Source: Stellaceae bacterium (GTDB lineage Bacteria > Pseudomonadota > Alphaproteobacteria > ATCC43930 > CGMCC-115725). Taken from it: DNA of 64,000 nucleotides. The DNA is taken from NCBI GenBank assembly GCA_035504235.1, contig DATJSH010000085.1:22-64021 (forward strand), read 5' to 3'. Positions 9,087 to 38,658 of this stretch are shown here, piece by piece (positions within the stretch are counted from its first letter, which is position 1; each line of letters starts with the position of its first letter). The notes under the pieces are model-generated. The model was not told the DNA's origin and ran no database searches. It saw nothing but the letters and a program-made list of their open reading frames with translations. Made by a program: the position numbers and the translations under genes.

Positions 9087-11912
9087 CTAATGCGCGGCGT
9101 CCCAGGTTTTGGCCCAACCGGTCTCGACGACGAGTGGCACCGACAATTCGCAGTGCGGCGCGCAGGCGCCTTCCATCACTTCCTTGACCAGCGAAGCAGT
9201 GGCCTGGATTTCGTCCTCCGGGGTCTCGAATAAGAGCTCGTCATGTACCTGGAGCAGCATCCGAGCGCTGAGGCCGGCCGCGTGCAGCGCCGCCGGGATG
9301 CGGCTCATCGCCCGCTTGATGATGTCGGCGGCCGAGCCTTGGAGCGGCGCATTGATCGCCTGACGCTCGGCACCCATGCGCCGCGCCGGGTTGGCGTCGC
9401 GGATGCCGGGGATAAAGCATTTGCGGCCGAAGATCGTCTCGACATAGCCGGCGGTGCGGCACTCGGCCTTGATCCGCTCCATGTAGGCGCGGATGCCGGG
9501 GAAGCGCTCGAAATAGAGGTCGATATAGGCCTTCGCCTCGGCCTGCGGCACGCTGATTTGGTTGCCGAGCCCGAATGCGCTGATCCCGTAGAGAATGCCG
9601 AAATTGATCGCCTTGGCGCGCCGGCGGATCAACGGCGTCATTTCGTCGAGCGGCACGTTGAAGACTTCGCTCGCGGTCGCCGCGTGGATGTCGTGCCCGG
9701 CGAGGAACGCCTCTTTCAGCGATGGGATATCGGCGACATGCGCCGCGAGGCGCAGCTCTATCTGGCTGTAATCGGCCGACAGCAGCACATGGCCCGACTC
9801 GGCGATAAAGGCCTGTCGGATTTTGCGGCCTTCCTCGGTGCGCACCGGAATGTTCTGCAGATTCGGATCGTTCGATGAAAATCGACCGGTGGCCGCGACT
9901 GTCAATGCGTAGGTGGTATGGACGCGCTGGTCGTCCGCGTCGATCTCATCGACGAGCGCGTCGGCATAGGTCGATTTGAGCTTCGTCAGCTGCCGCCATT
10001 CGAGCACCCGGCCTGGCACTGGGTGCAGCGGCTGCAGCTGCTCGAGGATCGAGGCGTCGGTGCCGTAGGCGCCGGTCTTGCCCTTTTTGCCGCCGGGCAG
10101 GTTGAGCTTGTCGAACAGGACATCGCCGAGCTGCTTGGGCGAACCGATGTTGAACTCGTTGCCGACATCGCGATAGATCGACGTTTCGATCTCGGCGATG
10201 CGCTTGGCAAAGTCGGTCGACAATTCGCCGAGCGCGCCGCGGTCGACTTTGATCCCGGCGTGTTCCATGGCCGCGACGGTCGGCACCAGCGGCCGCTCGA
10301 CGGTCTCGTAGAACGCATCCATATGCTCAGCGACGAGCCGCGCCTTCAAATATGCGTGCAGGCGCAACGCCGCGTCGGCGCGCTCGGCGGCGAAGTCACG
10401 TGCCGCTTCCGGTGCCACTTCGGCGAACGGGATCAGGCTCTTGCCGCTGCCGACCAGCGCCTTCAGCGGCTGGAGGCTGTGTCCCGCGGCGCGGCTGACG
10501 AGCTCCCCGATGTCGTGGTCGAACTGGCCGCCGTCGAGCACGTAAGACATCAGCATCGTGCAGTCATAGGGTGCGATGCGGATGCCGTGGCGCAGCAAGA
10601 GACGCGCCGCACCCTTCATGTCATGACCGATTTTCAGGGTGTAACGGTCTTCGAGAAGCGGCTTCAGCCGTGCCAGCACCTCGCTCGCCTGCAGCGCATT
10701 GGCGCCGAGTGCAGCCCCAGGGGCAGTAAGATCGAGGCTCGCCTGTCCGCCCGCCGGCTGCCGCGCGAGCGGCACGTAGGCGGCCAGCCCCGGCGCCAGG
10801 GCCAGCGCTATGCCCGCCAGCCCAGGCGCCGGGTGGATTGCCACAAACCCAGCCTCCTCGGCCGCTTCGATCCAGTGGTCGAGGCCTTCGAGCGTATCGA
10901 TCAGCGCGTATTTGCGCTCGTCGCCAAACGGCGCGATTTCGGGAATGACCGGCTCGCTCGCCGCCGGGGTCTCGACCGTCGCCGGCGCGGCGCCCTCCAG
11001 GCGCTGCGCCATCCGCGTGCCGAGCGTGCGGAACTCCATCTCCCGGAGCCATGGCAGCAGCACATCAGGGTCGATCGGCTGTACCGCGAGCTCGCTGAGC
11101 GGGCAGGGCAGCGGCACGTGATCGTCGAGCTTCACCAGCTCGCGCGACAGCCGCGCCTTGGCCGCGTGCTCGATGAGGCTTTCGCGCCGCTTTGGCTGTT
11201 TGATCTCGGGCGCGTGCTCCAGCAGGTTTTCGAGATCGCCGTAGGTGTTGATCAGCTCCGCCGCGGTCTTGACTCCGATTCCCGGCACGCCAGGCACGTT
11301 GTCGACGCTATCGCCGCACAGCGCCTGCACTTCGATGACCTTGTCCGGCCCGACGCCAAACCGCTCACGCACCTCGGCATCGCCGATGGGACGGTTCTTG
11401 ATTGGGTCGAGCATCGTCACGCGCTCGCGCACGAGCTGCATCATGTCCTTGTCGGACGAGACGATGGTGACGACGGCGCCGGCTTCGTCGGCCTCGCGCG
11501 CATAAGTCGCGATCAGGTCGTCGGCCTCGAAATCCGGCACATCGATGATGCAGACGCCAAAAGCTCTCGTCGCGTCGCGCACCAGCTTGAATTGCGGCTT
11601 CAGGTCGTCGGGCGGCTCGGTGCGGTTGGCCTTGTACAGATCGTAGATCTGATTGCGGAACGAGCTGCCCGAGTGGTCGAAGACGACGGCGATGTGATCG
11701 GCATCCGTCTCCGACAGCAGCTTGGCCAGCATGTTTGAGAAGCCGAGCACCGCCGAGGTTGGTGTCCCGTCCGAGCGGGTCAGCGGCGGCAGCGCGTGAT
11801 AGGCGCGGAAGATAAAGCCCGAGCCGTCGATCAGATAGACATGGCGCGGCGCAACGGTCGAACCGTCGTGGCCCGAAGCGGGGCGATGTTCGGTTGGGGC
11901 GATGTCGTTCAC
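9087..11912 (-). CDS. polA: DNA polymerase I
   Basis: 941 aa. Has the 5'-nuclease N-terminus (YLIDGSGFIFRAYHALP), a 3'-5' exonuclease-like middle region and polymerase motifs (DYSQIELR, RRRAKAINFGILYG, QVHDELLFE). Confidence 0.97.
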   Translation of the reverse strand: MNDIAPTEHRPASGHDGSTVAPRHVYLIDGSGFIFRAYHALPPLTRSDGTPTSAVLGFSNMLAKLLSETDADHIAVVFDHSGSSFRNQIYDLYKANRTEPPDDLKPQFKLVRDATRAFGVCIIDVPDFEADDLIATYAREADEAGAVVTIVSSDKDMMQLVRERVTMLDPIKNRPIGDAEVRERFGVGPDKVIEVQALCGDSVDNVPGVPGIGVKTAAELINTYGDLENLLEHAPEIKQPKRRESLIEHAAKARLSRELVKLDDHVPLPCPLSELAVQPIDPDVLLPWLREMEFRTLGTRMAQRLEGAAPATVETPAASEPVIPEIAPFGDERKYALIDTLEGLDHWIEAAEEAGFVAIHPAPGLAGIALALAPGLAAYVPLARQPAGGQASLDLTAPGAALGANALQASEVLARLKPLLEDRYTLKIGHDMKGAARLLLRHGIRIAPYDCTMLMSYVLDGGQFDHDIGELVSRAAGHSLQPLKALVGSGKSLIPFAEVAPEAARDFAAERADAALRLHAYLKARLVAEHMDAFYETVERPLVPTVAAMEHAGIKVDRGALGELSTDFAKRIAEIETSIYRDVGNEFNIGSPKQLGDVLFDKLNLPGGKKGKTGAYGTDASILEQLQPLHPVPGRVLEWRQLTKLKSTYADALVDEIDADDQRVHTTYALTVAATGRFSSNDPNLQNIPVRTEEGRKIRQAFIAESGHVLLSADYSQIELRLAAHVADIPSLKEAFLAGHDIHAATASEVFNVPLDEMTPLIRRRAKAINFGILYGISAFGLGNQISVPQAEAKAYIDLYFERFPGIRAYMERIKAECRTAGYVETIFGRKCFIPGIRDANPARRMGAERQAINAPLQGSAADIIKRAMSRIPAALHAAGLSARMLLQVHDELLFETPEDEIQATASLVKEVMEGACAPHCELSVPLVVETGWAKTWDAAH

Positions 11913-24535: not shown

Positions 24536-27500
24536 TCAGCGGTAATCCGGGTGTGCCGGCTTGCTTCGGACCCGCGCCGGCTCAGCGCGGCCTCCGGCAG
24601 GCGCCGCCCTCGCGCTGCCGCGCGAGCGGGCGAAGCGCGCGATCCAGTCGCCGAAGCGGTCCATGTAAAGGTAGGTGACCGGAATCGTGTACAGCGTCAG
24701 CGCCTGCGAAACAATCAGCCCACCCACCACCGCGACGCCCAAAGGCTGACGCAGCTCGGCGCCGGAGCCAAGCGCCAACGCGATCGGCATCGTGCCGAGG
24801 ATCGCCGACATTGTCGTCATCATGATCGGCCGGAAGCGCAGCGTCGCCGCCTCGAAGATCGCTTCTTCCGCCGTCTTGTTCCCGTTGCGCCGGCGCTCCA
24901 GCGCGAAGTCGATCATCATGATCGCGTTCTTCTTGACGATGCCGATCAGCATGATGAGCCCGATGATCGCTATCACCGTCAGGTCGAAGCCGAACAGCAT
25001 CAGGCATAAGAGCGCGCCGACACTCGCGGACGGCAGGCTCAAGAGGATCGTCACCGGATGGATGAAGCTTTCGTAGAGCACCCCTAGCACGACATAGACG
25101 GCGAAAATCGCCGCCGCGATCAGCAAGGGTTGTGTGGACAGCGAGCTTTGAAACGCCTCCGCGGTGCCCTGGAACGAGGTCTCGACCGTCTTCGGCAAGC
25201 CGATCTGCCGCGCCGCCTGCTGAATTCGGTCGACCGCCTGGCCGAGTGACGTGCCGGGCGCCAGGTTGAACGAGATGGTCACCGCGGGGAATTGGCCCTG
25301 GTGATTGACCGCAAGCGTTGTCGTGGTCGGCTTCAGGGTGGCGAAGTCGCTGAACGGAATCAGCTGGCCGCCGCTGCCGTGGACATAGAGCCGCGACAGC
25401 GCCGACACGTCCTCCTGGTATTGCGGCTCGACCTCGAGCACCACGTGATAGGTATTGAGCGTGCCGTATATTTGGGTGACATAGCCCTGCCCGAACGCGG
25501 CATTCAGCGTCGTCTCGATGCTCTGCGGGCTGATCCCGAGTCGGGAGGCGAGGTCGCGGTCGATATTGACCGTCAACTGCGGGCTGGTCGATTCCAGGTC
25601 GCTGGCGACATCCTGCAGACCGGGGACGCCTTTGAGCCTATCCTCCAGCTTCGGCGCCCAGGAATAGAGCTCCTGCATGTCGACGTCTTGCAGCGTGTAC
25701 TGGTATTGCGTGCGCGTCAGCCGTCCGCCGATGCGGATGCTCACGACGGGCTGCAGGTAGGTGGTGATCCCCGGTACCTTGGCGAGCTCGCCGCGCAGCC
25801 GTTGCATCACCGCGCCGATCGCCGGACGCTGGCCTTCCGGCTTGAGGCTGACGAACAGGCGCCCGGTATTAAGGCCCGAACTGCCGCCGCCGCCGATCGC
25901 CGAGCCGACGCTCGCGATCGCCGGGTCCTTCATGACCTCGGCCGCGGCGCGCTGCTGCAGATCGGCCATTCCCATGAAGGACACATCGGGCGAGGCCTCG
26001 GTGAAGCCGTAGATCATCCCGGTGTCCTCATCGGGGAAGAAACCCTTGGGGATGATCACGATCAGCACCGCGGTCAGCGCGATCAACGCAACGTTGAACA
26101 GCATCACCCACAGCCGCATCCGCAAGACCCATTTGAGCGAGCGCTCGTAGCCCCGGAACGTCGCGTCGAAGGCGCGCTCGCTCCACTGATAAAGCCGGCC
26201 GTGCTTGACCTCGCGCGGGTCCTTCAAAAACAGCGCCGCCATCATCGGCGACAGGGTCAGCGCAATCAGCGCCGAGAGGATGATCGCGGCGGTGACGGTA
26301 ATCGCGAACTCGCGGAAGAGCCGCCCGATGATCCCGCCCATGAACAGGAGCGGGATGAACACCGCAATCAACGACACAGTGATCGAAACGATGGTGAAGC
26401 CGATCTCGGCTGAGCCTTTGAGCGCGGCAGTCTTCGCGTCGTGACCTTGCTCGAGGTAGCGAAAGATGTTTTCGAGCATCACCACGGCGTCGTCGACAAC
26501 GAGGCCAACGGCGAGCGTCAACGCCATTAGCGACAAATTGTCGAGGCTGTATCCGCCGAGATAGAGCGCGGCGAAACTGCCGACCAGCGACAAAGGCACG
26601 GTAATGCTGGGGATGACCGTCGCCCATAGGCTGCGCAGAAAGACGAAGATCACCAGGACAACCAAGACGACCGTGAAGGCCAGCGTCATCTTCACGTCCC
26701 GAAAGCTGGCGCTGATCGACAGCGAGCGGTCGCTGACCATGGTCAGCTTCACCGAAGGCGGGATACCGGCCTGCAAGGCCGGCAGCATGTGCTTGATGCG
26801 ATTGACCAACTCGAGCGTATTGGAACCCGGCTGCCGCCAGATCCCAATCATCTCGCCGATGTGGTTGTTGACCCAGTCGAGCTGGAGCGGCACGTCGGAT
26901 CCGTCGACCACGCGGCCGATATCAGAGATGCGAACGGGCTGACCGTTGCGATAGGCGATGATGACCTTGCCAAGTTGATTGACGTCGAACAACTGACTAT
27001 TGGCGCCGATCTGGTAGGCCTGTTGCGGCCCTTGCAGCGTACCGATCGGCAATTCGACCGTGGTGCTGTCGATCGCATTGGCGACATCGTCGAAGCCGAG
27101 CCCGCGGGAGGCGAGGGCGCCCGGATTCACCTGCACGGTCGGCGCGTATTTCTGCTCGCCGAAGATCACCACCTGGCCGACACCGGGAAGCATCGAAATG
27201 CGCTGCGCGATATTGAGGTCGGCGTACTGATCGAGTTGGTGCAACGTCATCACGTCAGAGGTCAGGCCGAGGATCAGCACGGGCTGATCGGCCGGGTTGA
27301 CCTTTTTGTAGGTTGGCGGGCTCGGCAGGCTTTTCGGCAACTGCCCGCTCGCGGCGTTGATCGCGGACTGTACGTCGGACGCGGCGCCATCAATGCTCCG
27401 CGACAGGTCGAACTGGAGCGCGATGACGGTTGTCCCCTGAACGCTCGTCGAGGTGATCTGGTTGACTGAGGGCAGATCGGCGAATTGCCGTTCGAGAGGC

Positions 27501-27694
27501 TGCGCCACCGACGCGGCCATGATCTTAGGGCTGGCGCCAGGAAGGGTCGCGGTGACTTGCAGCGTCGGGAAATCAACCGTCGGCAGCGCCGCGACCGGCA
27601 GCAGATTGTAGCCGATCGCACCGCCGACAAAGAGCGCCATCATCAACAGTGCGGTCGCGATCGGCCGCCGGATGAATGGTTCCGAGATGCTCAT
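24536..27694 (-). CDS. RND efflux transporter permease (AcrB/MdtB/MdtC family)
   Basis: 1052 aa. Canonical N-terminus MSISEPFIRRPIATALLM and 12-TM / two-large-loop organisation. Confidence 0.95.
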   Translation of the reverse strand: MSISEPFIRRPIATALLMMALFVGGAIGYNLLPVAALPTVDFPTLQVTATLPGASPKIMAASVAQPLERQFADLPSVNQITSTSVQGTTVIALQFDLSRSIDGAASDVQSAINAASGQLPKSLPSPPTYKKVNPADQPVLILGLTSDVMTLHQLDQYADLNIAQRISMLPGVGQVVIFGEQKYAPTVQVNPGALASRGLGFDDVANAIDSTTVELPIGTLQGPQQAYQIGANSQLFDVNQLGKVIIAYRNGQPVRISDIGRVVDGSDVPLQLDWVNNHIGEMIGIWRQPGSNTLELVNRIKHMLPALQAGIPPSVKLTMVSDRSLSISASFRDVKMTLAFTVVLVVLVIFVFLRSLWATVIPSITVPLSLVGSFAALYLGGYSLDNLSLMALTLAVGLVVDDAVVMLENIFRYLEQGHDAKTAALKGSAEIGFTIVSITVSLIAVFIPLLFMGGIIGRLFREFAITVTAAIILSALIALTLSPMMAALFLKDPREVKHGRLYQWSERAFDATFRGYERSLKWVLRMRLWVMLFNVALIALTAVLIVIIPKGFFPDEDTGMIYGFTEASPDVSFMGMADLQQRAAAEVMKDPAIASVGSAIGGGGSSGLNTGRLFVSLKPEGQRPAIGAVMQRLRGELAKVPGITTYLQPVVSIRIGGRLTRTQYQYTLQDVDMQELYSWAPKLEDRLKGVPGLQDVASDLESTSPQLTVNIDRDLASRLGISPQSIETTLNAAFGQGYVTQIYGTLNTYHVVLEVEPQYQEDVSALSRLYVHGSGGQLIPFSDFATLKPTTTTLAVNHQGQFPAVTISFNLAPGTSLGQAVDRIQQAARQIGLPKTVETSFQGTAEAFQSSLSTQPLLIAAAIFAVYVVLGVLYESFIHPVTILLSLPSASVGALLCLMLFGFDLTVIAIIGLIMLIGIVKKNAIMMIDFALERRRNGNKTAEEAIFEAATLRFRPIMMTTMSAILGTMPIALALGSGAELRQPLGVAVVGGLIVSQALTLYTIPVTYLYMDRFGDWIARFARSRGSARAAPAGGRAEPARVRSKPAHPDYR

Positions 27695-27734
27695 CGGATG
27701 CGCACCGCGGCCCAGGGCATCGCGACTCCGGGCG

Positions 27735-28985
27735 TCATCGCGGGTTGACCCCTTGGCCGCCGGGCGCCGGCGTATTGACCCCGGTGCTGCCGACGCCCTC
27801 CGGGCCGATCTCCGGCTCTTGCGCGTTCATCTGCCCGGGTTCGCCTTGCTGGACGGCGACCTTGGCGCCGGGGAACAGCCGGTTGGTTCCCGAAACCACG
27901 ACCTTGTCGCCGGCCCGCAGACCCTTGCCGATCAGCGCGGTATTGTTTTCGATCTGCATGACATCGACACCGCGCGTGTCGACCGTCGAATCGGGCTTGA
28001 TGAAATAAACGAAGCTGCCTTTCGGCCCCATCTGCACCGCGGCAGATGGCACGGTCACACCGTTCTTGACCGTGTCGAGGACGAGATGGGCATTGACGAA
28101 GGCGCCCGGCCATAAAATCTCGTTATCGTTGGGAAACGTCGCCTTGAGCGTCACCATGCCGGTGGTCTGGTCGACCTGGTTGTCGATCAGGGTCAGCTTC
28201 CCTTCCGCGATTTGTTTCGCGTCACTGGCGTCGAAGGCGGCGACGGCCAACGGATGCTCTGCCATTTGCTCGCGGATGCGCGTGAGGCTTGCCCCTGACA
28301 GCGAGAAGGTGACAAAGATTGGCTTCATCTGGGTGATGACGACCAGCGGCGTCGCGGCGCTCGCCAGAACAAGATTGCCGATATCGACCTGGCGGCGGCC
28401 GGTGCGGCCGTCAATCGGCGAGCGGATCGAGGTGTAGTCGAGATTGACTTTGGCCTGCTCGACTTGCGCCTTGTCGCTGTCGACCGTCGCCTGATCGGAA
28501 GCGACGGTCGCCTTGTCGTTGTCGTATTGCTGCCGGGTGACCGCGATCTGCGTGTTCACGAGCGCCGCGTCGCGAGCCAGGTTGAGCTGGGCGTTCGAGA
28601 GGTTGGCTTGGTCCTTCTCCTGGTTGGCGATCGCCTGGTCGAGCGCTGCCTGGTAGGGACGCGGGTCGAGCTGAACCAGCAAATCGCCCGCCTTGACGTC
28701 CTGTCCCTCCTTGTATGCGACCTGGACGATGTTGCCGTCGACACGGCTCTTGACCGTTACCGTGTTGTAGGCCTGCACCGAGCCGATACCGCGCAGGATG
28801 ATAGGAACGTCTTCCGCCTTTGCCGCGGTCGCGAAAACGGGCACCGCCGCTTGCTGCCCAGACTGTGCCTGCCCGGTTTCCGGCGCGGCGTTGGCCCTGT
28901 GATGGTGCGCGGAAACCAGCCAGGCCACCACACACGCGGCGGCGACGGCGCCGAGCATCGCCATAAACTTGCGTGAAGATTGCAC
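27735..28985 (-). CDS. RND efflux periplasmic adaptor (MFP) subunit
   Basis: N-terminal TM anchor, coiled-coil hairpin region and beta-barrel domains. Sits directly upstream of the RND pump. Start is GTG at 28985 or ATG at 28964. Confidence 0.9.
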   Translation of the reverse strand: MQSSRKFMAMLGAVAAACVVAWLVSAHHHRANAAPETGQAQSGQQAAVPVFATAAKAEDVPIILRGIGSVQAYNTVTVKSRVDGNIVQVAYKEGQDVKAGDLLVQLDPRPYQAALDQAIANQEKDQANLSNAQLNLARDAALVNTQIAVTRQQYDNDKATVASDQATVDSDKAQVEQAKVNLDYTSIRSPIDGRTGRRQVDIGNLVLASAATPLVVITQMKPIFVTFSLSGASLTRIREQMAEHPLAVAAFDASDAKQIAEGKLTLIDNQVDQTTGMVTLKATFPNDNEILWPGAFVNAHLVLDTVKNGVTVPSAAVQMGPKGSFVYFIKPDSTVDTRGVDVMQIENNTALIGKGLRAGDKVVVSGTNRLFPGAKVAVQQGEPGQMNAQEPEIGPEGVGSTGVNTPAPGGQGVNPR

Positions 28986-29161: not shown

Positions 29162-30517
29162 TTAGGCCGAGCGGCGTGCCGTCTGCGGCGCGGCGCGATC
29201 GAAGGCGCTGTCCGGCCAGGCGAGGCCGTAATGCTCGCGCAGGGTGGCGCCCTCGTATTCGGTTCGAAACAGACCGCGCTTCTGCAGGATCGGGATGACC
29301 TCGGCGTTGAAGGCGTCGAGTTGCACCGGCAGCAAAGGCGGCATGACGTTGAACCCGTCGGCGGCGCCGTGGTGGAACCAGTCTTCGATCAAGTCGGCTA
29401 TCTGCTCCGGGGCGCCAGCGGTCACATAATGGCCGCGCGCGCCGGCCAAGTAGCCGAGCAATTGCCGCAAGGTCGGCTTGTCGCGCCGCACGAGGTTGAG
29501 AATGACCTCGGTTCGGCTGCGCGCCGCCTGGACCGTCGCGGGATCGGGAAAATCCTCGGGCCGCAAGGGTCGGTCGAGCGGCAGGCCGGAGAAATCATGC
29601 CCGCCAAAGCGGTTCGACAGCCGCTTGCGGCCGACTTCGGGGTCGGTGAGGTCGTTGGTCTCGCGCGCCAAGCGCTGCGCCTCCGCCTCGGTGCCGGCGA
29701 TCATCGGTGAGAGCCCCGGCAGGATCAGCACCTGGGCCGCGTCGCGGCCTTCCTCGACCGCCAGCCGCTTGAGGTCGGCATAGAACTCCTGCGCCGTCGC
29801 TTTCGCCATGTGCGCGGTGAACACTGCCTCGGCGTGCCTTGCCGCGAAGCGCCGCCCGGTATCGGACGACCCAGCCTGCACCAGCACCGGCCGCCCCTGC
29901 GGACAGCGCGGCATGTTGAGCGGTCCTTCGATCTTGTAGAAGTCGCCGCGATGATCGATCGGCCGGATGCGGTCCGCTCGTGCGTATTCCCCGCTTGCCC
30001 GGTCGTCGAGCACGGCGTCGTCGGCCCAGCTGTCCCACAGCGCCTTGACGACGGTCATGAATTCTTCGCCGCGGGTGTAACGGTCGGCATGACTGACCTG
30101 GCCGTCGCCACCAAAATTGGCCGCGGCGGTCGCCAGCCACGAGGTTACGATGTTCCATGCCGCGCGGCCATTCGAGATGTGGTCGATCGAGGCGAATTGT
30201 CGGGCGAGGTTGAAGGGTTCGGTGTAGGTGGTCGAGCAGGTGGCGATGAGCCCGATGCGCTGGGTCGCCACGGCGACCGCCGCCAGCACCGTCAGCGGCT
30301 CGAGCCAGGTGCGTGCCGCCTGCGCCACGTCGCCGCCCAGCGCCAGTTGGTCGGCGAGGAAGATGGAGTCGAACTTGGCCGCCTCGGCGCGCTGCGCCAG
30401 GTCCTGGTAATAGCGGATGTCGGTCAGCGGCAGCGGCGAGGTATCCGGGTGCCGCCACGACGCCTCGTGGTGCCCGCGGCTGTGGATGAACAGGTTGAGG
30501 TGCAACTGCCGTTTCAT
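29162..30517 (-). CDS. NtaA/SnaA/DszA-family LLM flavin-dependent monooxygenase
   Basis: MKRQLHLNLFIHSRGHHEASWRHP N-terminus, typical of this family. About 451 aa. Confidence 0.85.
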   Translation of the reverse strand: MKRQLHLNLFIHSRGHHEASWRHPDTSPLPLTDIRYYQDLAQRAEAAKFDSIFLADQLALGGDVAQAARTWLEPLTVLAAVAVATQRIGLIATCSTTYTEPFNLARQFASIDHISNGRAAWNIVTSWLATAAANFGGDGQVSHADRYTRGEEFMTVVKALWDSWADDAVLDDRASGEYARADRIRPIDHRGDFYKIEGPLNMPRCPQGRPVLVQAGSSDTGRRFAARHAEAVFTAHMAKATAQEFYADLKRLAVEEGRDAAQVLILPGLSPMIAGTEAEAQRLARETNDLTDPEVGRKRLSNRFGGHDFSGLPLDRPLRPEDFPDPATVQAARSRTEVILNLVRRDKPTLRQLLGYLAGARGHYVTAGAPEQIADLIEDWFHHGAADGFNVMPPLLPVQLDAFNAEVIPILQKRGLFRTEYEGATLREHYGLAWPDSAFDRAAPQTARRSA

Positions 30518-30589
30518 GCCGCTCAATCCATATGTCCGGGCCTTGCTGCCGCGCGCATTGTGAAGGACACGGCAGCGCGGCGCCAGCGG

Positions 30590-31792
30590 TTACGGCCGCT
30601 TCAGGAGCCGTGCATCGGGCGGGACGGGGTCGTCGGCGAGTTGCACGGCGCGGTGCCGCGCTTGCGCCTCCTCGATCAGCAGCGACAGGAGCGCGGTGAA
30701 GCCAACGGGTTCCGGCGCCGCCTCCCACAAATAGAAACCGAATGAGCCGGGACACGGGTTGACCTCGTTGAGCCAGACCTCGCCGGTCGCTTCATTACTC
30801 AAGAAGTCGATGCGCGGCGCACCCGTGCCGCCGACCGCCTCGAAGGCGGCGATCGCCCAGCGCCGCAGATTGTCCGCAAACGCTTGCGGCAGGTCGGGGT
30901 TGATCTCGCGGGTCAGCGACAGCATGCCCTGGCTCGATTGCCCGAGCAACTTGCCGCCAGCGATCTTGCTGTCGCCGCCGGAGAGATATTTCTGGCGGAA
31001 GTCGAGCAGTTCCTCGACCCGTTTCGGCCGCTCGATCGCCGAGCATCGGATAGCCCCGCCAAAGCGCGCCACCGAGACGTTGTACTCGACGAGGTTCGGC
31101 ACAAACGGCTCGATCAGTGCCTGTGCGTCGAGCCGGAAGATCGCCGCCAGCAACGCCCGCGCTTCCTCGATAGTCTCGGCCTTGCCGACACCGATGCTGC
31201 TGCCGAGATGCACCGGCTTGACGATGCAGGGAAAGCCGATATTGGCGAGCTGCATCTCTTCGGTCAGCGCCTCCGCTCCGGGCAGCCCGCTCGCCGGACG
31301 GTCGATCACCGCCTGGCGCAGCAGCGGGATGCCGCTGCCTTCGAGCGCGCGCTTGGTCACGGCCTTGTCCATGAGCACCGCCGAGGCCAGCGTGCGCATC
31401 CCGGTATAGGGAATGTTGGCGGCCTCGCAGAGGCCCTGCATCTGCCCATCTTCGCCGCCCGAGCCGTGAAACGCGAGCAACGCCACGTCGAACTCGGTCG
31501 GCGGCCGGCGCGAGAAGAGCCCGGTCTGGCGCGGGATGAGCCGTCCGCCACTGTCCGCGGCGATATCGAGCGTCACTTCGGTCAACTTGGCGCGCAGCTG
31601 CGCGCCGGGCAGGTAGTTCCGGCGCTCGTCGAGACCCGGCCCGATGAGCCAGTCGCCCTGCGGTGTCACATAGACGACGAAGGCGTCGAACCGCGCCTGG
31701 TCGAGCGCCGCAACGGCCTGCAGTCCGGTTACGACACTGACATCGTGCTCCGGCGAGCGGCCGCCGAGGAACACCGCAATTCGGGTTTTCAT
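30590..31792 (-). CDS. D-alanine--D-alanine ligase family ATP-grasp protein (long paralog)
   Basis: FLGGRSPEHDVSVVTG, FHGSGGEDGQMQG, VKPVHLGSSIGV and NEVNPCPG motifs. At 400 aa it is longer than canonical Ddl. Confidence 0.8.
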   Translation of the reverse strand: MKTRIAVFLGGRSPEHDVSVVTGLQAVAALDQARFDAFVVYVTPQGDWLIGPGLDERRNYLPGAQLRAKLTEVTLDIAADSGGRLIPRQTGLFSRRPPTEFDVALLAFHGSGGEDGQMQGLCEAANIPYTGMRTLASAVLMDKAVTKRALEGSGIPLLRQAVIDRPASGLPGAEALTEEMQLANIGFPCIVKPVHLGSSIGVGKAETIEEARALLAAIFRLDAQALIEPFVPNLVEYNVSVARFGGAIRCSAIERPKRVEELLDFRQKYLSGGDSKIAGGKLLGQSSQGMLSLTREINPDLPQAFADNLRRWAIAAFEAVGGTGAPRIDFLSNEATGEVWLNEVNPCPGSFGFYLWEAAPEPVGFTALLSLLIEEAQARHRAVQLADDPVPPDARLLKRP

Positions 31793-31824
31793 CGCGATGT
31801 CTTATCCTATAGGCAAGGGGGCAA

Positions 31825-32613
31825 ATGCTACTCGAACGTCAGGATATAGATGCGGCGGGAACGCGCTTTGCCGCCTTTCGCCTCGCCGGCGTCGCGCGCG
31901 CCGACGCGCCGGAATTGGTCTGGGCGCATGGCTGGGCGCACAGTCATCTGTCGCTGGCGCCGCTCGCCGAGGCGATGCGAGGACGGGCCGATTCGTGGCT
32001 GGCGGATCTGCCGGGGTTTGGCGCGTCGCCGCTGCCGCCGGGTCCCTGGGGCACAGCGGATTATGCCGATGCGATGGCCGACTGGCTGGCGACGTTGCCG
32101 GCGCGCAAGCGAGTGTGGGTCGGCCACTCCTTCGGCTGCCGTGTCGGGTTGCAGCTAGCGGCACGACATCCCGAGGCAGTGGCCGCCTTGTTCCTGATCG
32201 CCGCCGCCGGGTTGCCGCCGCATCGCTCGCTGGCGACGCGGCTCCGACGCATGCCGCGACGCCTCGCGTTTCGTGCGACGCGGGCGATGACCCCCGAAGG
32301 GCCGGCGCGCGAACGGTTGCGCGAGCGCTACGGCAGCAGCGATTACCGCACCGCCGGGGCGATGCGCCCGGTGCTGGTGAAGGCGGTGAACGAGGACCTG
32401 ACCGCCGTCGCCCGTCGCATCGGACTGCCGGTGATGCTGGTGCATGGCGAGGCCGACACCGAAAGCCCGCCGGAGATCGCGACCCGGCTGCACGCGTTGA
32501 TTACCGGCTCGCAGCTGCATCTGCTGCGAGGATTCGACCATCTGACGATCCTTGGTGACGGGCGGCACCAAGTGATCCATCTGCTCGGCGAATTGCTGGT
32601 GAGCCTCAAATGA
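31825..32613 (+). CDS. alpha/beta hydrolase
   Basis: HGW oxyanion region and GHSFG nucleophile elbow. C-terminal GFDH supplies the catalytic His. RBS AAGGGGG. The stop overlaps the next ATG. Confidence 0.75.
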   Translation: MLLERQDIDAAGTRFAAFRLAGVARADAPELVWAHGWAHSHLSLAPLAEAMRGRADSWLADLPGFGASPLPPGPWGTADYADAMADWLATLPARKRVWVGHSFGCRVGLQLAARHPEAVAALFLIAAAGLPPHRSLATRLRRMPRRLAFRATRAMTPEGPARERLRERYGSSDYRTAGAMRPVLVKAVNEDLTAVARRIGLPVMLVHGEADTESPPEIATRLHALITGSQLHLLRGFDHLTILGDGRHQVIHLLGELLVSLK

Positions 32614-34196
32614 GCGGCCTCTTCGCGCTCGCCGGTTTTGCGCTGCTCGCGCTCAAGCGGCTCCTGACCTATCTCCATCTTTTTCAGCAAGAGGAATACG
32701 ATAACCGGCGCTTTCTCGCATGGGTCGCAAAGAGTCGCGCCTTCGACCGCCGGTTGTCTGTTGCTTTTCTTGCCGTATGGCTGATGCAGCTTGTGCTGCA
32801 CGGGGTTCCGGATTGGGCATTTGGTGCGCTTGCCGGCGTAGCTGCGGCAGCGATCGCCGCGTTCGAGCCCGACCCGCGCAAGACCGCCAAGAAGCGGCTG
32901 ACGATGACTGCGCGCGCCATGCGTATCTATCTTGTCGCGCTGGGCCTCTTGGCGCTTGTCGGTGTCGCCGCGGCATTGCTGACCGGCCCGATTGTCTTAT
33001 GGATCGTACCGGTGCAGTTGGTGCCGCTGGCGCTTGTCGCCGGCAATCTGCTGCTCGCGCCGGTCGAGGCAAGGACGCAGCACCGCTATTGGGACGAGGC
33101 GCAGGCGACCCTGCGCCGCATCGACCCGATGGTCATCGCCATCACCGGCTCCTATGGTAAGACCTCGGTCAAGCACATCCTCGGCCACGTGCTCGAAACC
33201 GCGGCGCCGACGCTGATCACCCCCGGCAGCGTCAACACCGCGATGGGCATCGCGCGGGTGATCCGCGAGCAGCTGCAACCGCATCAGCGCTTTTTTGTCG
33301 TCGAGATGGGCGCCTACGGGCCGGGCTCGATCCGCCGGCTCTGCGAGTTGACGCCGCCGAAAATGGGCATCGTCACCGCGATCGGCATGGCGCATTACGA
33401 GCGCTTCAAATCGCTGGAGACCGTTGCCGAGGCCAAGTTCGAGCTTGCCGAAGCGACGGCCGTGCAAGGCGGTACGGTGATCGCCGCCGCCGACGTGCTG
33501 GAATTTGCCGCGCCGCAGCGTTTCGCGGCAGCGCATCCCGACATTTTCCTGACGGTGGGCGCCCCCGACAATGCCGCAGTCGCCGTCACCGCGATGCGCC
33601 AGGACATCGACGGCATTGCGGTCCGCGTGACCTGGCGAGACCAGCAATACGAGCTGCGCGCGCCGCTCTTCGGACTGCAGCAGGGCAAGAACGTGGCGCT
33701 CGCCTTTGCCGCCGCCTGTACGCTCGGCCTCCCGCCGGAAGATGTCGTCGCCAGCCTGCGGTCGACACCACAGATCGCGCACCGGCTCGAGGTGAAGCGC
33801 GAGCGGAACGGCGCGACCTTGATCGACGACGCCTACAACTCCAACCCGGTGGGTTTTGCCGCGGCGCTCGACGTGCTCGATTTGCTGCGCGGGGCGGAGG
33901 GCCGGCGCATCCTCGTGACCCCCGGCATGGTCGAACTCGGCGCAGCGCACGATGACGAGCACCGCCGTATCGGCCGGCTCGCCGCCGCACATGTCGATGT
34001 GCTGGTCGCGGTGGCGCCGCACCGCGTCGCACCGCTCGCCGAGGCTTTCAAGGAGACCGCCCCCGCGGCCGAGGTCGTCTCCTGCCCCGGTTTTGCCGAG
34101 GCGCAGGCGTGGATGGCGCGCAACATCGCGCCGGGCGACGTGGTGCTGCTAGAGAACGACCTGCCCGACCTCTTGGAGCAAAAGCTTCGCCTTTAG
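32610..34196 (+). CDS. Mur ligase family protein, MurF-like catalytic and C-terminal domains with an N-terminal multi-TM region
   Basis: P-loop ITGSYGKTS, VVEMGA, GIVTAIGMAHYERF, DDAYNSNP and PGMVELG. The first ~140 aa form 4-5 hydrophobic helices where a MurF domain 1 would be. Confidence 0.8.
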   Translation: MSGLFALAGFALLALKRLLTYLHLFQQEEYDNRRFLAWVAKSRAFDRRLSVAFLAVWLMQLVLHGVPDWAFGALAGVAAAAIAAFEPDPRKTAKKRLTMTARAMRIYLVALGLLALVGVAAALLTGPIVLWIVPVQLVPLALVAGNLLLAPVEARTQHRYWDEAQATLRRIDPMVIAITGSYGKTSVKHILGHVLETAAPTLITPGSVNTAMGIARVIREQLQPHQRFFVVEMGAYGPGSIRRLCELTPPKMGIVTAIGMAHYERFKSLETVAEAKFELAEATAVQGGTVIAAADVLEFAAPQRFAAAHPDIFLTVGAPDNAAVAVTAMRQDIDGIAVRVTWRDQQYELRAPLFGLQQGKNVALAFAAACTLGLPPEDVVASLRSTPQIAHRLEVKRERNGATLIDDAYNSNPVGFAAALDVLDLLRGAEGRRILVTPGMVELGAAHDDEHRRIGRLAAAHVDVLVAVAPHRVAPLAEAFKETAPAAEVVSCPGFAEAQAWMARNIAPGDVVLLENDLPDLLEQKLRL

Positions 34197-35038
34197 GCTT
34201 TAACCGCCTTGGCGATCAATACCGTGCCCGGCAGGCGCATCCCGGCGCGAGTCAGGTAGGGCGCGTAGGCGGCCGCAGTTTCAGCGACGATCGCCTGGCG
34301 CACGCTTTCGGGCGCCTGCTTTTCTTCCATCAGCCGCCAGGCAGGGCCGAACATGGCGGCGTGCTCTGCCTCGCTTTTTGCGGTCAGGCCGATGATCTTG
34401 AACCCTTGCGGCGCGATGTCGATCTCGGCGAACCCGGCCTTGACGAGGATGTCGCGCAAATAGGCGGGGTCACGAAACGCCATAGGCCCGGGCGCGTGGG
34501 GGTCGACCGACGCAGGTTCGCCGAGATGCTTCGCCGCGATGTCGAACGGGATCTTCCAGTGTGCGTTCTCCGCCATCGATGCCCAGACCGCCATGCAAAG
34601 CCGCCCGCCGCGCCGCAACCCCGCGAACAGGTTGGTGAAGGCGGCGACCGGGTCGGCGAAGAACATCACGCCGAAGCGCGAGATCAGCAGGTCGAAGCTG
34701 TCAGCCGGAAAGCGCTGCGCCTGCGCATCGGCCCGGATCAGCGCGATGTTCGACACGCCGGCTTTGGCGATGTTCTCGCGCGCCTGGTCGAGCATCGGCT
34801 CGGAAATGTCGATGCCGGTGACGTGGCCGCTGGGTGCCACCGCCTGGGCGAACGGAATCGCCGTCGCGCCGGTGCCGCAGCCGATGTCGAGCACCCGCTC
34901 GCCGGGTTGCGGCGCCGCCGCGCGTTGCAAGAGGTGCGCGGCCTCGATATTGCGCGCTTCCTGAAGCCCCGCGCGGGCGACCCAGCGCGGCCCAGCGACC
35001 TTGTTCCAGTATTCTCCCATCGCCGCGTTGTCGGGCAT
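34193..35038 (-). CDS. class I SAM-dependent methyltransferase
   Basis: VLDIGCGTGAT motif I and a downstream DLLISRFG motif. 281 aa. Confidence 0.8.
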   Translation of the reverse strand: MPDNAAMGEYWNKVAGPRWVARAGLQEARNIEAAHLLQRAAAPQPGERVLDIGCGTGATAIPFAQAVAPSGHVTGIDISEPMLDQARENIAKAGVSNIALIRADAQAQRFPADSFDLLISRFGVMFFADPVAAFTNLFAGLRRGGRLCMAVWASMAENAHWKIPFDIAAKHLGEPASVDPHAPGPMAFRDPAYLRDILVKAGFAEIDIAPQGFKIIGLTAKSEAEHAAMFGPAWRLMEEKQAPESVRQAIVAETAAAYAPYLTRAGMRLPGTVLIAKAVKA

Positions 35039-35100
35039 CGGTGCCTCCCTCGCCTCTCATCCGCCTCTCCCGAAATGCGGAGAGGGGAGAGCAGTCACGG

Positions 35101-36342
35101 CTACTTGCCGAGCACGCCGTCGGCTTTGAGACCGTCGATCTCGCCGGCGCTCATGCCGAGCCAGCCCTGCAGCACCTCGCCGGTATGCTGGCCGAGCAGC
35201 GGTGATGGCTTGACCTTGGCCGGCGAGCCGTCAAAGCGCACCGGCCAGGCCGGCATCTTGACCGTGCCGGTCGTGGGATGCTCGAAGGTCTGCATGATGC
35301 CGCGCTCGGCGAGCGACGGGTCGGCCATCAATTCGGCGGTGTCGAACACCGCGCCGGCCGGCACCCCCGCCTCGCCGATCAGCTTCATCGCCTCATCCTT
35401 GCCGTGCTCGCGGGTCCAGGCGGAGATGATCTCGTCGACCTCGGCGGCGCGCTGGCTGCGCGCGTTCTGTGTGTCGTAGCGCTCGTCGCCCGCCAAATCC
35501 TCGCGACCGATGACGCGCAACAGGCGCTGCCAATGTTCGGGGTTGGCGCGGCTGCAGAACACATACACATAGTCGTTCGGCCCGCCCGGCTTGCACGGGT
35601 AGAGCGCCGAGGGCACGAGCCCGCCGGGCTGTGACTTGGCGCTGCCACCGCGCGGCGGCGCTTTGCCCGATGCCTGGGTGCGCGAGAAGGGCACGCGCAT
35701 GTAGTGGATCATCGCGTCCTGCATCGCGACCTGGAGCCGGCGGCCCTGGCCGGTCTTGGCCCGCTTGTAAAGCGCACCCAGAATGCTGATCGCCATCAGC
35801 ATCCCGGTGCCGGTGTCGCCGAAGCTGGGGCCGGGCTTGACCGGCGCCTGCCCGGCCTCGCCGGTGACGCTGGTCGGGCCGCCCGCCGCCTGCGCGATCA
35901 TGTCGAAGGCAAGGTTCTTCTCATACGGGCTGCCGGTGCCGAAGCCCTTGACCTGGCAGTAGATGATGCCGGGGTTGATGTTCTTGACCTCGTCATAGCC
36001 GAGGCCGAGCCGCTCGATCGTGCCGGGCGCCATGTTCTCGATCGTGACGTCGGCCTTGGCGAGCAACGCCTTGACGATTTCGAGGCCGCGCGGCGATTTG
36101 AGGTCGACCGTCAGCGATTTCTTGTTGGCGTTGAACTGGTGGAAATACCACGGGTCCTTGTCGGGCGCGCCGGGTCCTTGCAGGCGGCGCCCGGGGTCGC
36201 CGGTCAGCGGGTTCTCGATCTTGACGACCTCGGCGCCGAGCCAGGCCAGCGATTCGGTGCAGGACGGCCCCGCCTCGAACTGGGTGAAATCGACGATTTT
36301 GATGCCTTCGAGGCAATCGATCTCAACGCCGAGATTCGCCAT
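35101..36342 (-). CDS. CaiB/BaiF family III CoA-transferase
   Basis: ATG at 36342. IKIVDFTQFEAGPSCTESLAWLGAEVVKIENP resembles the Frc/CaiB N-terminus. Confidence 0.88.
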   Translation of the reverse strand: MANLGVEIDCLEGIKIVDFTQFEAGPSCTESLAWLGAEVVKIENPLTGDPGRRLQGPGAPDKDPWYFHQFNANKKSLTVDLKSPRGLEIVKALLAKADVTIENMAPGTIERLGLGYDEVKNINPGIIYCQVKGFGTGSPYEKNLAFDMIAQAAGGPTSVTGEAGQAPVKPGPSFGDTGTGMLMAISILGALYKRAKTGQGRRLQVAMQDAMIHYMRVPFSRTQASGKAPPRGGSAKSQPGGLVPSALYPCKPGGPNDYVYVFCSRANPEHWQRLLRVIGREDLAGDERYDTQNARSQRAAEVDEIISAWTREHGKDEAMKLIGEAGVPAGAVFDTAELMADPSLAERGIMQTFEHPTTGTVKMPAWPVRFDGSPAKVKPSPLLGQHTGEVLQGWLGMSAGEIDGLKADGVLGK

Positions 36343-36503
36343 GTCAAATCCCCCCGGAAAGTTGCGTACACAGTAGCGCTCCTCTCGGCGAGGCGCCATT
36401 TTGAATTGGCTTCACGGCGAGAGCCGGGGGCCGCTCACCCAAGTTCTCGGGCGCTGAAAACTGGGATCCGGCTTCGCCGGGACCCTTAAGAGGGCTTGAA
36501 GAA

Positions 36504-37685
36504 CTATCCCGTCAGCCGGTCCAGCCGCTTTTCGACGAGCTTGACGAAAAGGCTCGAGCCGAAGGGCAGCGCCGCGTCGTTGAAGTCGTAACCCGGGTTG
36601 TGCACCTCGCAGGCGCCTTCTCCGTCAACGTCGCCATTGCCGATTTGGATATAGGCGCCGGGGACCACGCGCAACATCCAGGCAAAATCTTCCGACGCCA
36701 TGGTTGGCGTCATCGAGCGGTTGATGTTCTCCTCGCCGACGACGTCAGCCGCGCAATCGAGGATGAATTGCGTCTCGTCCGTATGGTTCATCAGCACCGG
36801 GAACAGCAGGCGGAAATCGAGTTCGGCCTTGGCGCCAAACCCGGCCGCGACGCTCTCGGCGATATGGCGCATCCGCTCTTCGACGAGTGTCATCACCTGG
36901 TCGCTGAAGCACCGCACGGTGCCGCCCAAAACCGCCTTGTCGGGAATCACGTTGTAGGCCTGGCCGGCATGGAAGCGGGTGATGCTCACCACCGCGGTCT
37001 CGACCGGCCGCACGTTGCGCGAAACGATCGTTTGCAAGGCCGAAGCGATGGCGGAGCCGACAACCACCGGATCGACACCGGATTCGGGACGCGCCCCGTG
37101 CGAGCCGACGCCCGTGATGTCGATGTCGAAATAGGCACCGCTTGCCATCATCGCGCCGGACCGCGTCTGGAACTTGCCGACCGCCAGTCCCGGCCGGTTG
37201 TGCATGCCGAAGAGCACATCGCACGGGAAGCGCTCGAACAGCCCGTCGTCGAGCATTGCCGACGCGCCGCCGAGCCCCTCCTCGGCCGGCTGAAAGATGA
37301 AATGCACCGTGCCGTCAAAATTGCGCGTCTGCGACAGGTACCGCGCCGCGCCGAGAAGCATCGTCGTGTGCCCGTCATGGCCGCAGGCATGCATCTTGCC
37401 GTTATGGGTGGAGCGATGGCCGAAGGTGTTGGCTTCGAGGATGGGTAAGCAGTCCATGTCGGCGCGCAAGCCGATCGAGCGCGGCGAATTGCCCACCTGC
37501 AGCCGGCCGACGAGCCCAGTCTTGCCGATGCCGCGGGTCACCTCGATGCCGAATTGTTCCAGCTTCGCCGCGACCAGGTCGGCGGTCCGCGTTTCCTCGA
37601 AGCCGAGCTCGGGATGCGCGTGGATGTCGCGCCGCCAGGCGGTCATGTCGTTGTGGTAGGCGGTGATGGCGTCAAGCGGCGGCAT
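36504..37685 (-). CDS. M20-family amidohydrolase (hippurate hydrolase / aminoacylase-like)
   Basis: ATG at 37685 inside the fused track ORF 36504..38456. WRRDIHAHPELGFEE and ACGHDGH metal-ligand motifs. Confidence 0.88.
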   Translation of the reverse strand: MPPLDAITAYHNDMTAWRRDIHAHPELGFEETRTADLVAAKLEQFGIEVTRGIGKTGLVGRLQVGNSPRSIGLRADMDCLPILEANTFGHRSTHNGKMHACGHDGHTTMLLGAARYLSQTRNFDGTVHFIFQPAEEGLGGASAMLDDGLFERFPCDVLFGMHNRPGLAVGKFQTRSGAMMASGAYFDIDITGVGSHGARPESGVDPVVVGSAIASALQTIVSRNVRPVETAVVSITRFHAGQAYNVIPDKAVLGGTVRCFSDQVMTLVEERMRHIAESVAAGFGAKAELDFRLLFPVLMNHTDETQFILDCAADVVGEENINRSMTPTMASEDFAWMLRVVPGAYIQIGNGDVDGEGACEVHNPGYDFNDAALPFGSSLFVKLVEKRLDRLTG

Positions 37686-37705
37686 GAAATTTCCCTCAAT
37701 TTTAT

Positions 37706-38461
37706 TCAGTTTAGCGCAGCGTGCGCGGCCAGCGCGAGCGTATAGAGCCCGGTCGCACCGAGCACGATGAGCGCCAGCGCCCCGGCGGCGGCCTCGCCCA
37801 TCCTGTCGCCGACCCGCAGCCCGAGGCGGCCGCCGACCCAGACAAAGGGCAAAAGGCTCAGTGCGATCAGCCAATCGCGCGCCGGCACGCCGATGAAAAT
37901 CGCATTCGCTGTCAGCGTCGCGGCGTAGATCAACGCGAAGAAGCCGATCAGTGTGGCGCGCACCGAGCGCATCGGCGCGCCACCCAGCATCAGGTAGATC
38001 AGCACCGGCGGGCCGGCCATGCCGACGAGGCCGGTGGCGACCCCGGCGACCGCGCCGACCGCGAAGTCGCCGCGCGGCCCGGTCGCGATGCAATGCGTGA
38101 TCCCGCGATAGCGCAACCACGCCAGCACGATCGCAAAGCCGGTGACAATGGTGCCGGCGACCGTCCCGACGATCGTCGGGTTCGCATGATGGAAGGCGAT
38201 AATGCCGAGCGGCAAAGCCACAAGGCTGCCGACCGTCAGGCGGCGCAGCAGACCGCGATCGGCCGAGCGATAAAGCCCCGGCATCACAAACAGCGACACC
38301 GCAAGGCTGATAATGACAATGATCGGAACCGCCTCGGCTGGGGGCGACAGCAGCAGAAAAAAAGGCACCGCCAGCACCGCGAAGCCGAACCCGTTGGTCG
38401 CCTGCAGCAGGGAAGCGGCAAAACACGTCACCACGAGCCCGGCCCAATTCGTCCAATCCAC
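37706..38461 (-). CDS. TauE/SafE family sulfite/anion exporter
   Basis: GTG at 38461 gives a ~251-aa polytopic membrane protein with the TauE-like repeat (LLQATNGFGFAVLAVPFF... and VGMAGPPVLIYLML). Confidence 0.8.
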   Translation of the reverse strand: MDWTNWAGLVVTCFAASLLQATNGFGFAVLAVPFFLLLSPPAEAVPIIVIISLAVSLFVMPGLYRSADRGLLRRLTVGSLVALPLGIIAFHHANPTIVGTVAGTIVTGFAIVLAWLRYRGITHCIATGPRGDFAVGAVAGVATGLVGMAGPPVLIYLMLGGAPMRSVRATLIGFFALIYAATLTANAIFIGVPARDWLIALSLLPFVWVGGRLGLRVGDRMGEAAAGALALIVLGATGLYTLALAAHAALN

Positions 38462-38658
38462 CGTCAGCCTGCGCCTCGCGTGCGAGCTTCTAAAGCGGTT
38501 CCGTAGGAGCGCGTCGTTATAGTCCAATGCTCCCAGGGCGTCTTGTGCACAAGGGCCGGACGGCATGGCAGCGCCTCGTAAATTCGGACGTGACGCCGCG
38601 GCCCGGCAGTAGCAAGCTTCCCACAAACCCAACAAAAGAAGACGGGAGGAGAGGCCCC

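Follow-up and report, generated by a model that had tools for sequence, protein, structure and literature searches.

We found that three adjacent genes in a stretch of 64,000 nucleotides from a Stellaceae bacterium (Alphaproteobacteria; GenBank assembly GCA_035504235.1, contig DATJSH010000085.1; hereafter the window, meaning the whole stretch that was analysed) encode a Ddl-like ATP-grasp protein, an alpha/beta serine hydrolase and a Mur-family ligase. The ligase is probably a MurF-type enzyme that lacks domain 1, is anchored in the membrane and attaches D-Ala-D-Ala to precursors of peptidoglycan, and not a polymerase resembling those of cyanophycin or polyglutamate; we put the probability of this reading at about 0.6. 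MurF, an antibiotic target, is regarded as a soluble cytoplasmic enzyme of three domains wherever it occurs. The reading draws on the domain architecture of the proteins, their conserved catalytic residues, the synteny of the three genes and, in other phyla, the occupation of the murF and ddl slots of the division and cell wall (dcw) cluster. The original prediction for this locus, made from the letters of the window alone, had listed the open reading frames (ORFs), the divergent spacer of 32 base pairs (bp) between the Ddl-like and hydrolase genes, the ATGA at 32610-32613 in which the ligase start codon overlaps the hydrolase stop, and a set of motifs including GHSFG in the hydrolase, all of which were confirmed on the sequence (Table 1).

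Upon examining the catalytic part of the 528-amino-acid ligase, we find that Pfam Mur_ligase_M covers residues 178-369 (E-value 2e-30) and Mur_ligase_C residues 391-514 (E-value 2.7e-15), with the motifs GSYGKTS, VVEMGA, DDAYNSNP and PGMVELG all present. The P-loop GSYGKTS, E232, H262 and K276 (the Lys at H+14) are invariant across phyla, as are D407, N410, N412, P438, G439 and E442 in the C-terminal domain, with D406 and P413 invariant within the closer set only. Furthermore, L513, N516, L518 and D520 of a family-specific C-terminal motif are also invariant across phyla. Among curated models, the MurF profile TIGR01143 gave 215.8 bits, compared with 69 for murD and 52 for murE, with the match beginning at profile position 65, and the equivalogs NF008041 and NF010693 scored 118-119 against cutoffs of 544-551. 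MurF was likewise closest in a sequence search of the PDB, where the ligase aligns to Pseudomonas aeruginosa MurF, and in 82 of 82 homologues E. coli MurF was matched better than MurC, MurD or MurE. Foldseek comparison with the PDB returned MurF structures as the best matches (4QF5, 4CVM, 1GG4; TM-score 0.6-0.69 over about 370 columns, domains 2 and 3 only), followed by MurE and MurC. By profile, sequence and predicted fold, the protein is probably a membrane-anchored MurF-type ligase without domain 1. It shares with MurF (TIGR01143; 1GG4, 4CVK, 4QF5) the central and C-terminal domains, the P-loop, the catalytic His and Lys and the DDxYNxNP motif, whereas it differs in lacking domain 1, in having a five-helix membrane domain with its own motifs and an ENDLPD end, and in being nearly always paired with an alpha/beta hydrolase.

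Domain 1, which in MurF binds the moiety of uridine diphosphate (UDP) and N-acetylmuramic acid (MurNAc), is absent from the ligase, and residues 1-170 hold membrane helices instead, with no Pfam match in this region and specifically none to PF01225. The replacement of domain 1 by four to five hydrophobic helices, as originally proposed, is therefore upheld by the missing PF01225 and by the restriction of the Foldseek matches to domains 2 and 3; hydropathy gives five segments (about 3-15, 49-63, 67-85, 106-124 and 128-150), and AlphaFold2 predicts helices here with high confidence. The model, built from an alignment of 62 family members, is confident throughout (predicted local distance difference test, pLDDT, 90.9; predicted TM-score 0.85) and places N-terminal helices at residues 2-27, 32-41, 47-62, 68-85, 101-123 and 128-136, with a long helix at 138-171 that runs into the ligase fold, which suggests that the membrane and ligase domains are held in a fixed arrangement. 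Two loops are rich in Lys and Arg (eight such residues in 16-48 and seven in 86-105); applying the positive-inside rule to them, we infer a topology with the N-terminus outside and the C-terminal ligase domains in the cytoplasm. Residues Q26, Y30, K94, T100, R102 and E153 are invariant across phyla, with W38, L97, R105, P139 and P151 nearly so, and the predicted topology places each of them either in a loop on the cytoplasmic side or at the end of the fifth transmembrane helix (TM5) that faces the cytoplasm. No PDB fold matched the membrane domain in Foldseek. When residues 1-170 alone were searched against 1.84 billion representative proteins, at least 333 clusters (50% identity) were recovered, gut Bacteroidales and Clostridia among them, and the full-length matches were all proteins of about 505-565 amino acids (one of 634) carrying the domain at the N-terminus. 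Since every full-length match is the N-terminus of such a ligase, the membrane domain is specific to this ligase family.

The 400-amino-acid protein contains both Pfam D-Ala-D-Ala ligase domains (Dala_Dala_lig_N, PF01820; Dala_Dala_lig_C, PF07478), and its best PDB matches are all Ddl. Comparing its family with E. coli DdlB, we observe that, of 15 residues for catalysis or substrate, 14 are conserved in all 64 sequences (E15, H63, K97, K144, S150, E180, K215, Y216, R255, D257, E270, N272, G276 and L282 in DdlB numbering). As judged from its sequence, the protein is a divergent Ddl. With DdlA and DdlB (TIGR01205) it has in common both domains, the 14 residues and the omega-loop Lys-Tyr pair, whereas it departs from them in a C-terminal tail, in Tyr or Phe at the position of Ser281 and in an insertion of about 19 residues, the distance from K268/Y269 to R327 being 58 residues versus 39 in DdlB. 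Its score against NF002528 is 210.2 bits, against a cutoff of 262.

The 262-amino-acid protein matches Pfam Abhydrolase_1, Abhydrolase_6 and Hydrolase_4, and Ser102 (in GHSFG), Asp211 and His239 are conserved in all 71 sequences of the hydrolase alignment. Also conserved are the oxyanion motif HGW and, within the small cap, GSxDY, a motif particular to this family. The AlphaFold2 model (pLDDT 91.7) has as its top Foldseek matches small esterases and lipases, such as the membrane phospholipase PlaF, a Thermogutta esterase, ABHD6 and an enol-lactonase, with generic dehalogenases among the other neighbours, and no peptidase occurs among the top 50 matches. Sequence matches in the PDB are weak and generic, no specific NCBIfam subfamily reaches its cutoff, and there is no obvious signal peptide. 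From its alignment and modelled fold, the protein is predicted to be a catalytically intact Ser-Asp-His enzyme of the small esterase/lipase type. As to its role, we can only guess that it edits or trims the ends of stem peptides or that it serves a lipid-related step.

Next, we investigated how widely the three genes occur together. A scan of relatives, restricted to one genome per species, yielded 80 loci with full-length relatives, and the presence of the trio at loci was scored by tblastn with the three window proteins. Relatives were found in Alphaproteobacteria, Acidobacteriota, Bdellovibrionota, Omnitrophota, Cyanobacteriota including Melainabacteria, Chlamydiota, Bacteroidota, Poribacteria, Chloroflexota and Bacillota. 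At the 82 loci, from about ten phyla, the order hydrolase>ligase>ddl was seen 43 times, <ddl hydrolase>ligase, as in the window, 14 times, hydrolase>ligase 14 times and ligase>ddl five times; several loci with an incomplete trio lie at contig ends. The gaps between hydrolase and ligase genes lie mostly between −8 and +30 bp, and the spacer between the Ddl-like and hydrolase genes is 24 bp and 102 bp in two other Stellaceae loci (L001 and L002, respectively). Upon clustering neighbouring ORFs, only the hydrolase, the ligase and the Ddl-like gene were conserved throughout. The adjacency of the trio, holding in most of the 82 loci and about ten phyla, is far beyond chance, and the trio is an ancient module. 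Synteny across phyla together with the tight or overlapping spacing of hydrolase and ligase supports the view that the three genes form a functional module.

Several side observations concern the integrity and carriage of the trio. At one locus, on a contig of 1.84 Mb, the hydrolase upstream of an intact ligase was called as only 83 amino acids (L087:9750-10001, plus strand) and the Ddl-like gene is intact; the short hydrolase may be a pseudogene or a gene-calling problem. An apparent hydrolase-ligase fusion at another locus (L005) was rejected as an artefact, since the long ORF that produced it runs out of frame through GC-rich DNA. Plasmid carriage of the module was also rejected, with plasmid matches being only to canonical extra murF genes, covering query residues of about 162-526 only and in no case the membrane domain. 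Numerous plasmids and linear replicons, above all those of Streptomyces and its relatives, carry such extra canonical murF genes (for example NZ_CP108559.1, 18053-19078). A part in anti-phage defence was dismissed, as PADLOC gave no match for any of the three proteins.

Beyond the trio itself, the next commonest neighbours, in a subset of lineages, are MurG, FtsW, MurB, MraY, FtsZ, FtsA, FtsQ and FtsI. Two Poribacteria loci (L033 and L051) have the order mraW-ftsL-ftsI-murE-hydrolase-membrane ligase-ddl-mraY-murD-ftsW, so that the membrane ligase, standing between murE and mraY, holds the canonical murF position; the identities of MurE and MurD in dcw-embedded loci were confirmed against E. 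coli. One of these two loci carries a UPF0236/ISL3-like transposase gene between the hydrolase and the membrane ligase (L033:6475-7794, plus strand), which is absent from its sister locus. Micavibrio-like Alphaproteobacteria (L085 and L088) show ftsI-murE-(ORF of 150-158 amino acids)-mraY-murD-ftsW-murG-murC-murB, followed by hydrolase> and membrane ligase> and then by <ddl-ftsQ-ftsA-ftsZ-lpxC, with ftsI visible only in L085; a third locus (L010) covers the part from hydrolase and membrane ligase through murB to murE. Here canonical murF is absent between murE and mraY, the membrane ligase lies inside the dcw cluster between murB and ddl, and the Ddl-like gene fills the canonical ddl slot directly upstream of ftsQ. 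The local arrangement at three Bdellovibrionota loci (L014, L015 and L021) matches that of the dcw-embedded loci.

The small ORF in the murF slot of the Micavibrio-like loci (L085:19101-19577 and L088:21072-21524, both on the minus strand, and L010 at about 9450-9905, minus strand) overlaps or abuts murE and mraY and was found in this lineage only. We considered it as a split-off MurF domain 1 and rejected this, the ORF having no similarity to E. coli MurF, no Pfam match and a lineage-restricted occurrence.

Canonical MurF was found in none of the 82 local neighbourhoods, five of which contain murE and nine mraY, and every MurF-best match in them is the membrane form. The membrane ligase thus appears to be the only MurF-type gene of the dcw cluster in Poribacteria and Micavibrio-like Alphaproteobacteria, and the module appears to be the housekeeping MurF/Ddl pair in some lineages. 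In the Stellaceae (the window, L001 and L002), in Acidobacteriota and at locus L089 the trio lies away from the dcw cluster. Since the order in the window, <ddl hydrolase>ligase, is that of the Micavibrio-type dcw arrangement, the Stellaceae trio could be either a relocated housekeeping set, and so perhaps the sole MurF/Ddl pair of this genome, or an acquired second copy.

These results also bear on the rest of the original prediction. The conservation of the triad as a neighbourhood was borne out by the synteny, and the proposed membrane-associated ligation module is real, with a ligase predicted to be membrane-anchored and a divergent Ddl; that prediction had named Hyphomicrobiales as the group to compare, whereas the nearest named relatives are Stellaceae (Rhodospirillales). 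The claim that the module has no cell-wall gene context is correct for the window, in which tblastn with E. coli queries found no other homologues of MurE, MraY, MurD, FtsW, MurG, MurC or FtsQ, but it fails for relatives whose dcw cluster contains the module, at the places of murF and ddl. Detaching the module from the cell wall was probably wrong.

Our preferred explanation is that the trio works as an independent unit that carries out the D-Ala-D-Ala branch in the synthesis of peptidoglycan precursors. The ATP-grasp enzyme would make D-Ala-D-Ala or a close D-Ala-D-X dipeptide. The ligase, with its catalytic central and C-terminal domains in the cytoplasm and the five-helix membrane domain in place of the UDP-binding domain 1, would convert the carboxylate at the end of the stem tripeptide to an activated acyl phosphate and add the dipeptide next to MraY, the basic cytoplasmic loops of the membrane domain probably forming the acceptor site at the membrane surface. 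The hydrolase, encoded upstream and often translationally coupled, would act in the same pathway. Two acceptors fit the conserved residues at the membrane interface, namely UDP-MurNAc-tripeptide, used by a tethered enzyme, and lipid I/II-tripeptide.

Several points weigh against this explanation. The UDP-binding domain of MurF is missing, and therefore UDP-MurNAc-tripeptide may not be the acceptor. The scores of the two ligases fall below the curated cutoffs of their family models (TIGR01143, cutoff 288.6; TIGR01205 for Ddl, 212.8 bits against 245.65), and the position of DdlB Ser281, a D-Ala2 carboxylate ligand, is Tyr in 52 and Phe in 12 of the 64 sequences. A cytoplasmic alpha/beta hydrolase is not known to be required at any peptidoglycan step, and the nearest folds of this one are esterases and lipases, not peptidases. 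Additionally, the trio in the window adjoins no cell-wall gene, Labrys and some cyanobacteria have the ligase without a Ddl partner nearby, and the absence of canonical murF holds for the local neighbourhoods, so that carriers may have it elsewhere in the genome. The ligase of Labrys and the cyanobacteria fits an accessory role.

The most probable of the alternatives, though we consider it less likely than not, concerns the acceptor: at the inner membrane face, the ligase would add D-Ala-D-Ala to a MurNAc-tripeptide that is lipid-linked (undecaprenyl-pyrophosphate), as in lipid I or lipid II, performing the MurF step at the membrane stage where canonical MurF has been lost and repairing trimmed lipid-linked stems where MurF has been kept. 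The replacement of domain 1 by a polytopic membrane domain would suit such a substrate, as would the invariant K94, R102 and R105 in a cytoplasmic loop and the Pro, Asn and Glu conserved where TM5 meets the cytoplasm, but a membrane tether alone also accounts for this architecture. In Micavibrio-like genomes murE is followed by the small ORF and then directly by mraY, and the hydrolase resembles lipid esterases; the proposal nonetheless requires that MraY take the tripeptide nucleotide efficiently. A precedent is MurT, a Mur-ligase homologue without the UDP-binding domain 1, which acts with a hydrolytic partner on lipid II, at the membrane stage. MurT/GatD (lipid II isoglutaminyl synthase) resembles our ligase in the missing domain 1 and the hydrolytic partner, whereas it has no membrane helices, its partner is a glutaminase, and the reaction is an amidation and not a dipeptide addition. 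Membership of the MurT/GatD family itself was rejected (NF052464, 23.2 bits against a cutoff of 800, and no glutaminase in the neighbourhood).

We consider it unlikely that in this genome the trio is an accessory salvage or editing unit alongside canonical dcw enzymes encoded elsewhere. The hydrolase would then trim aberrant or recycled stems (tetrapeptides, depsipeptide ends) to the tripeptide, from which the MurF/Ddl pair would rebuild the pentapeptide. The position of the window locus outside the dcw cluster, the flanks that vary between Stellaceae genomes, the occurrence in Labrys and cyanobacteria of the ligase, sometimes accompanied by the hydrolase but with no Ddl nearby, and the intact catalytic residues of the hydrolase all agree with this; set against it, the hydrolase is retained even where the module fills essential dcw slots, and the structures most like it are those of esterases and lipases and not of peptidases.

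A product outside peptidoglycan seems to us distinctly improbable, whether an N-acyl-D-Ala-D-Ala lipopeptide, an amino-acid-modified envelope lipid or a polymer of the CapB/PgsB or cyanophycin type, to be released or trimmed by the hydrolase. PgsB and CphA use Mur-ligase-type chemistry, PgsB being membrane-anchored and CphA combined with an ATP-grasp domain, and the module here, which joins ATP-grasp and Mur-ligase enzymes with a membrane anchor, is reminiscent of them; the esterase- or lipase-like hydrolase, with PlaF and ABHD6 among its Foldseek matches, the family-model scores that are all below cutoff and the lack of cell-wall context in the window point the same way. However, in several phyla the module stands in the dcw cluster at the places of murF and ddl, and the catalytic residues of the Ddl-like enzyme mark a dipeptide ligase and not a polymerase. 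The analogy to cyanophycin synthetase and CapB/PgsB drawn in the original prediction was not sustained, as MurF is the best match: the cyanophycin synthetase model TIGR02068 scored 18.8 bits against a cutoff of 850, and in the C-terminal region only, while no PgsB model appeared among the NCBIfam matches (E-value ≤ 0.01) and no PgsC or PgsA among the conserved neighbours. Cyanophycin synthetase is moreover a fusion of ATP-grasp and Mur ligase domains, whereas the ATP-grasp protein of the trio is a separate, Ddl-type dipeptide ligase. A polymerase is thus a poor fit because the profile scores are negligible or absent, PgsC and PgsA are not conserved nearby, and the full dipeptide-ligase residue set is kept.

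Least probable of all, and very doubtful, is a Van-like system for a variant terminus, in which the Ddl-like enzyme would make D-Ala-D-X (Ser, Lac or other), the ligase would add it and the hydrolase would destroy the competing normal dipeptide or terminus: the change of Ser281 to Tyr or Phe in the D-Ala2 subsite, the insertion beside the omega loop, the joint travel of ligase, MurF-type enzyme and hydrolase, and the extra murF copies common on actinomycete plasmids (glycopeptide-resistance clusters are accompanied by such copies) would suit it, but Tyr216 of the omega loop, a residue typical of D-Ala-D-Ala ligases, does not vary, the conserved neighbours include no VanH-, VanX-, VanR- or VanS-like genes, and dcw-embedded copies would have to make the main precursor.

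With regard to the surroundings of the trio, the window neighbours are an RND (resistance-nodulation-division) pump, a luciferase-like monooxygenase, a methyltransferase, a CoA-transferase, an M20 peptidase, TauE and a thiamine pyrophosphate enzyme. The luciferase-like monooxygenase gene lies downstream of the Ddl-like gene, and beyond it are an AcrB-type RND transporter (1052 amino acids) and an HlyD-type membrane-fusion protein (24536-28985, minus strand), whose linkage to the trio was not seen at related loci. On the other side, an S-adenosylmethionine-dependent methyltransferase, a class III CoA-transferase, the M20 peptidase and TauE (34193-38635, minus strand) are common to one other Stellaceae locus (L001:11692-19549) and not to L002. 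Between Stellaceae genomes, conservation is limited to the trio and the flanks vary. Many long ORFs on both strands overlap the trio in other frames (29595-34126), for example 30884-31849 (plus), 32997-34022 (minus) and 29595-30755 (minus); they have no independent support and are typical artefacts of DNA with 67% G+C.

Table 1. Features of the three-gene locus in the window (position 1 is the first nucleotide of the 64,000).
Feature	Position	Strand	Remarks
Ddl-like ATP-grasp ligase	30590..31792	−	400 amino acids; long DdlA/VanA-type N-domain, extra insertion, C-terminal tail
Family-specific insertion, residues about 270-326	30815..30985	−	after the omega-loop Lys-Tyr; from the DdlB alignment
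Divergent spacer, Ddl-like gene / hydrolase gene	31793..31824		32 bp; read from the sequence
Alpha/beta serine hydrolase	31825..32613	+	262 amino acids; small cap domain
Predicted hydrolase triad	Ser102 (32128-32130), Asp211 (32455-32457), His239 (32539-32541)	+	71-sequence alignment
Mur-family ligase	32610..34196	+	528 amino acids
N-terminal membrane domain, residues 1-172	32610..33125	+	five predicted transmembrane helices, two basic cytoplasmic loops, long linker helix
Mur ligase central ATP-binding domain	33141..33716	+	P-loop GSYGKTS, E232, H262, K276; Pfam
Mur ligase C-terminal domain	33780..34196	+	DDAYNSNP, PGMVELG and the family-specific L-x-E-N-D-L-P-D motif

Overall, this family is unlike the textbook MurF in being a polytopic membrane protein without the UDP-binding domain, nearly always accompanied by a serine hydrolase and usually by its own Ddl. 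In Pfam, NCBIfam and PADLOC neither the membrane domain nor the trio has a model, and the literature consulted, including work on how Mur ligases evolved, on dcw clusters and on MurE-MurF chimeras, does not describe a membrane-anchored MurF or this trio, which in an incomplete library is absence of evidence only. Source annotations name the ligase as an ordinary MurF and the hydrolase as a 'pimeloyl-ACP methyl ester carboxylesterase', and the family, if our reading is confirmed, would need a name of its own. Confirmation would also establish a membrane-bound variant of the D-Ala-D-Ala step, with lipid-linked precursors as possible substrates, and a role for a cytoplasmic alpha/beta hydrolase in cell-wall precursor synthesis. 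Were the lipid-linked acceptor to prove the true one, the last 'cytoplasmic' precursor step would come after MraY in several phyla, in a re-ordered pathway with an esterase-like hydrolase as an obligatory partner.

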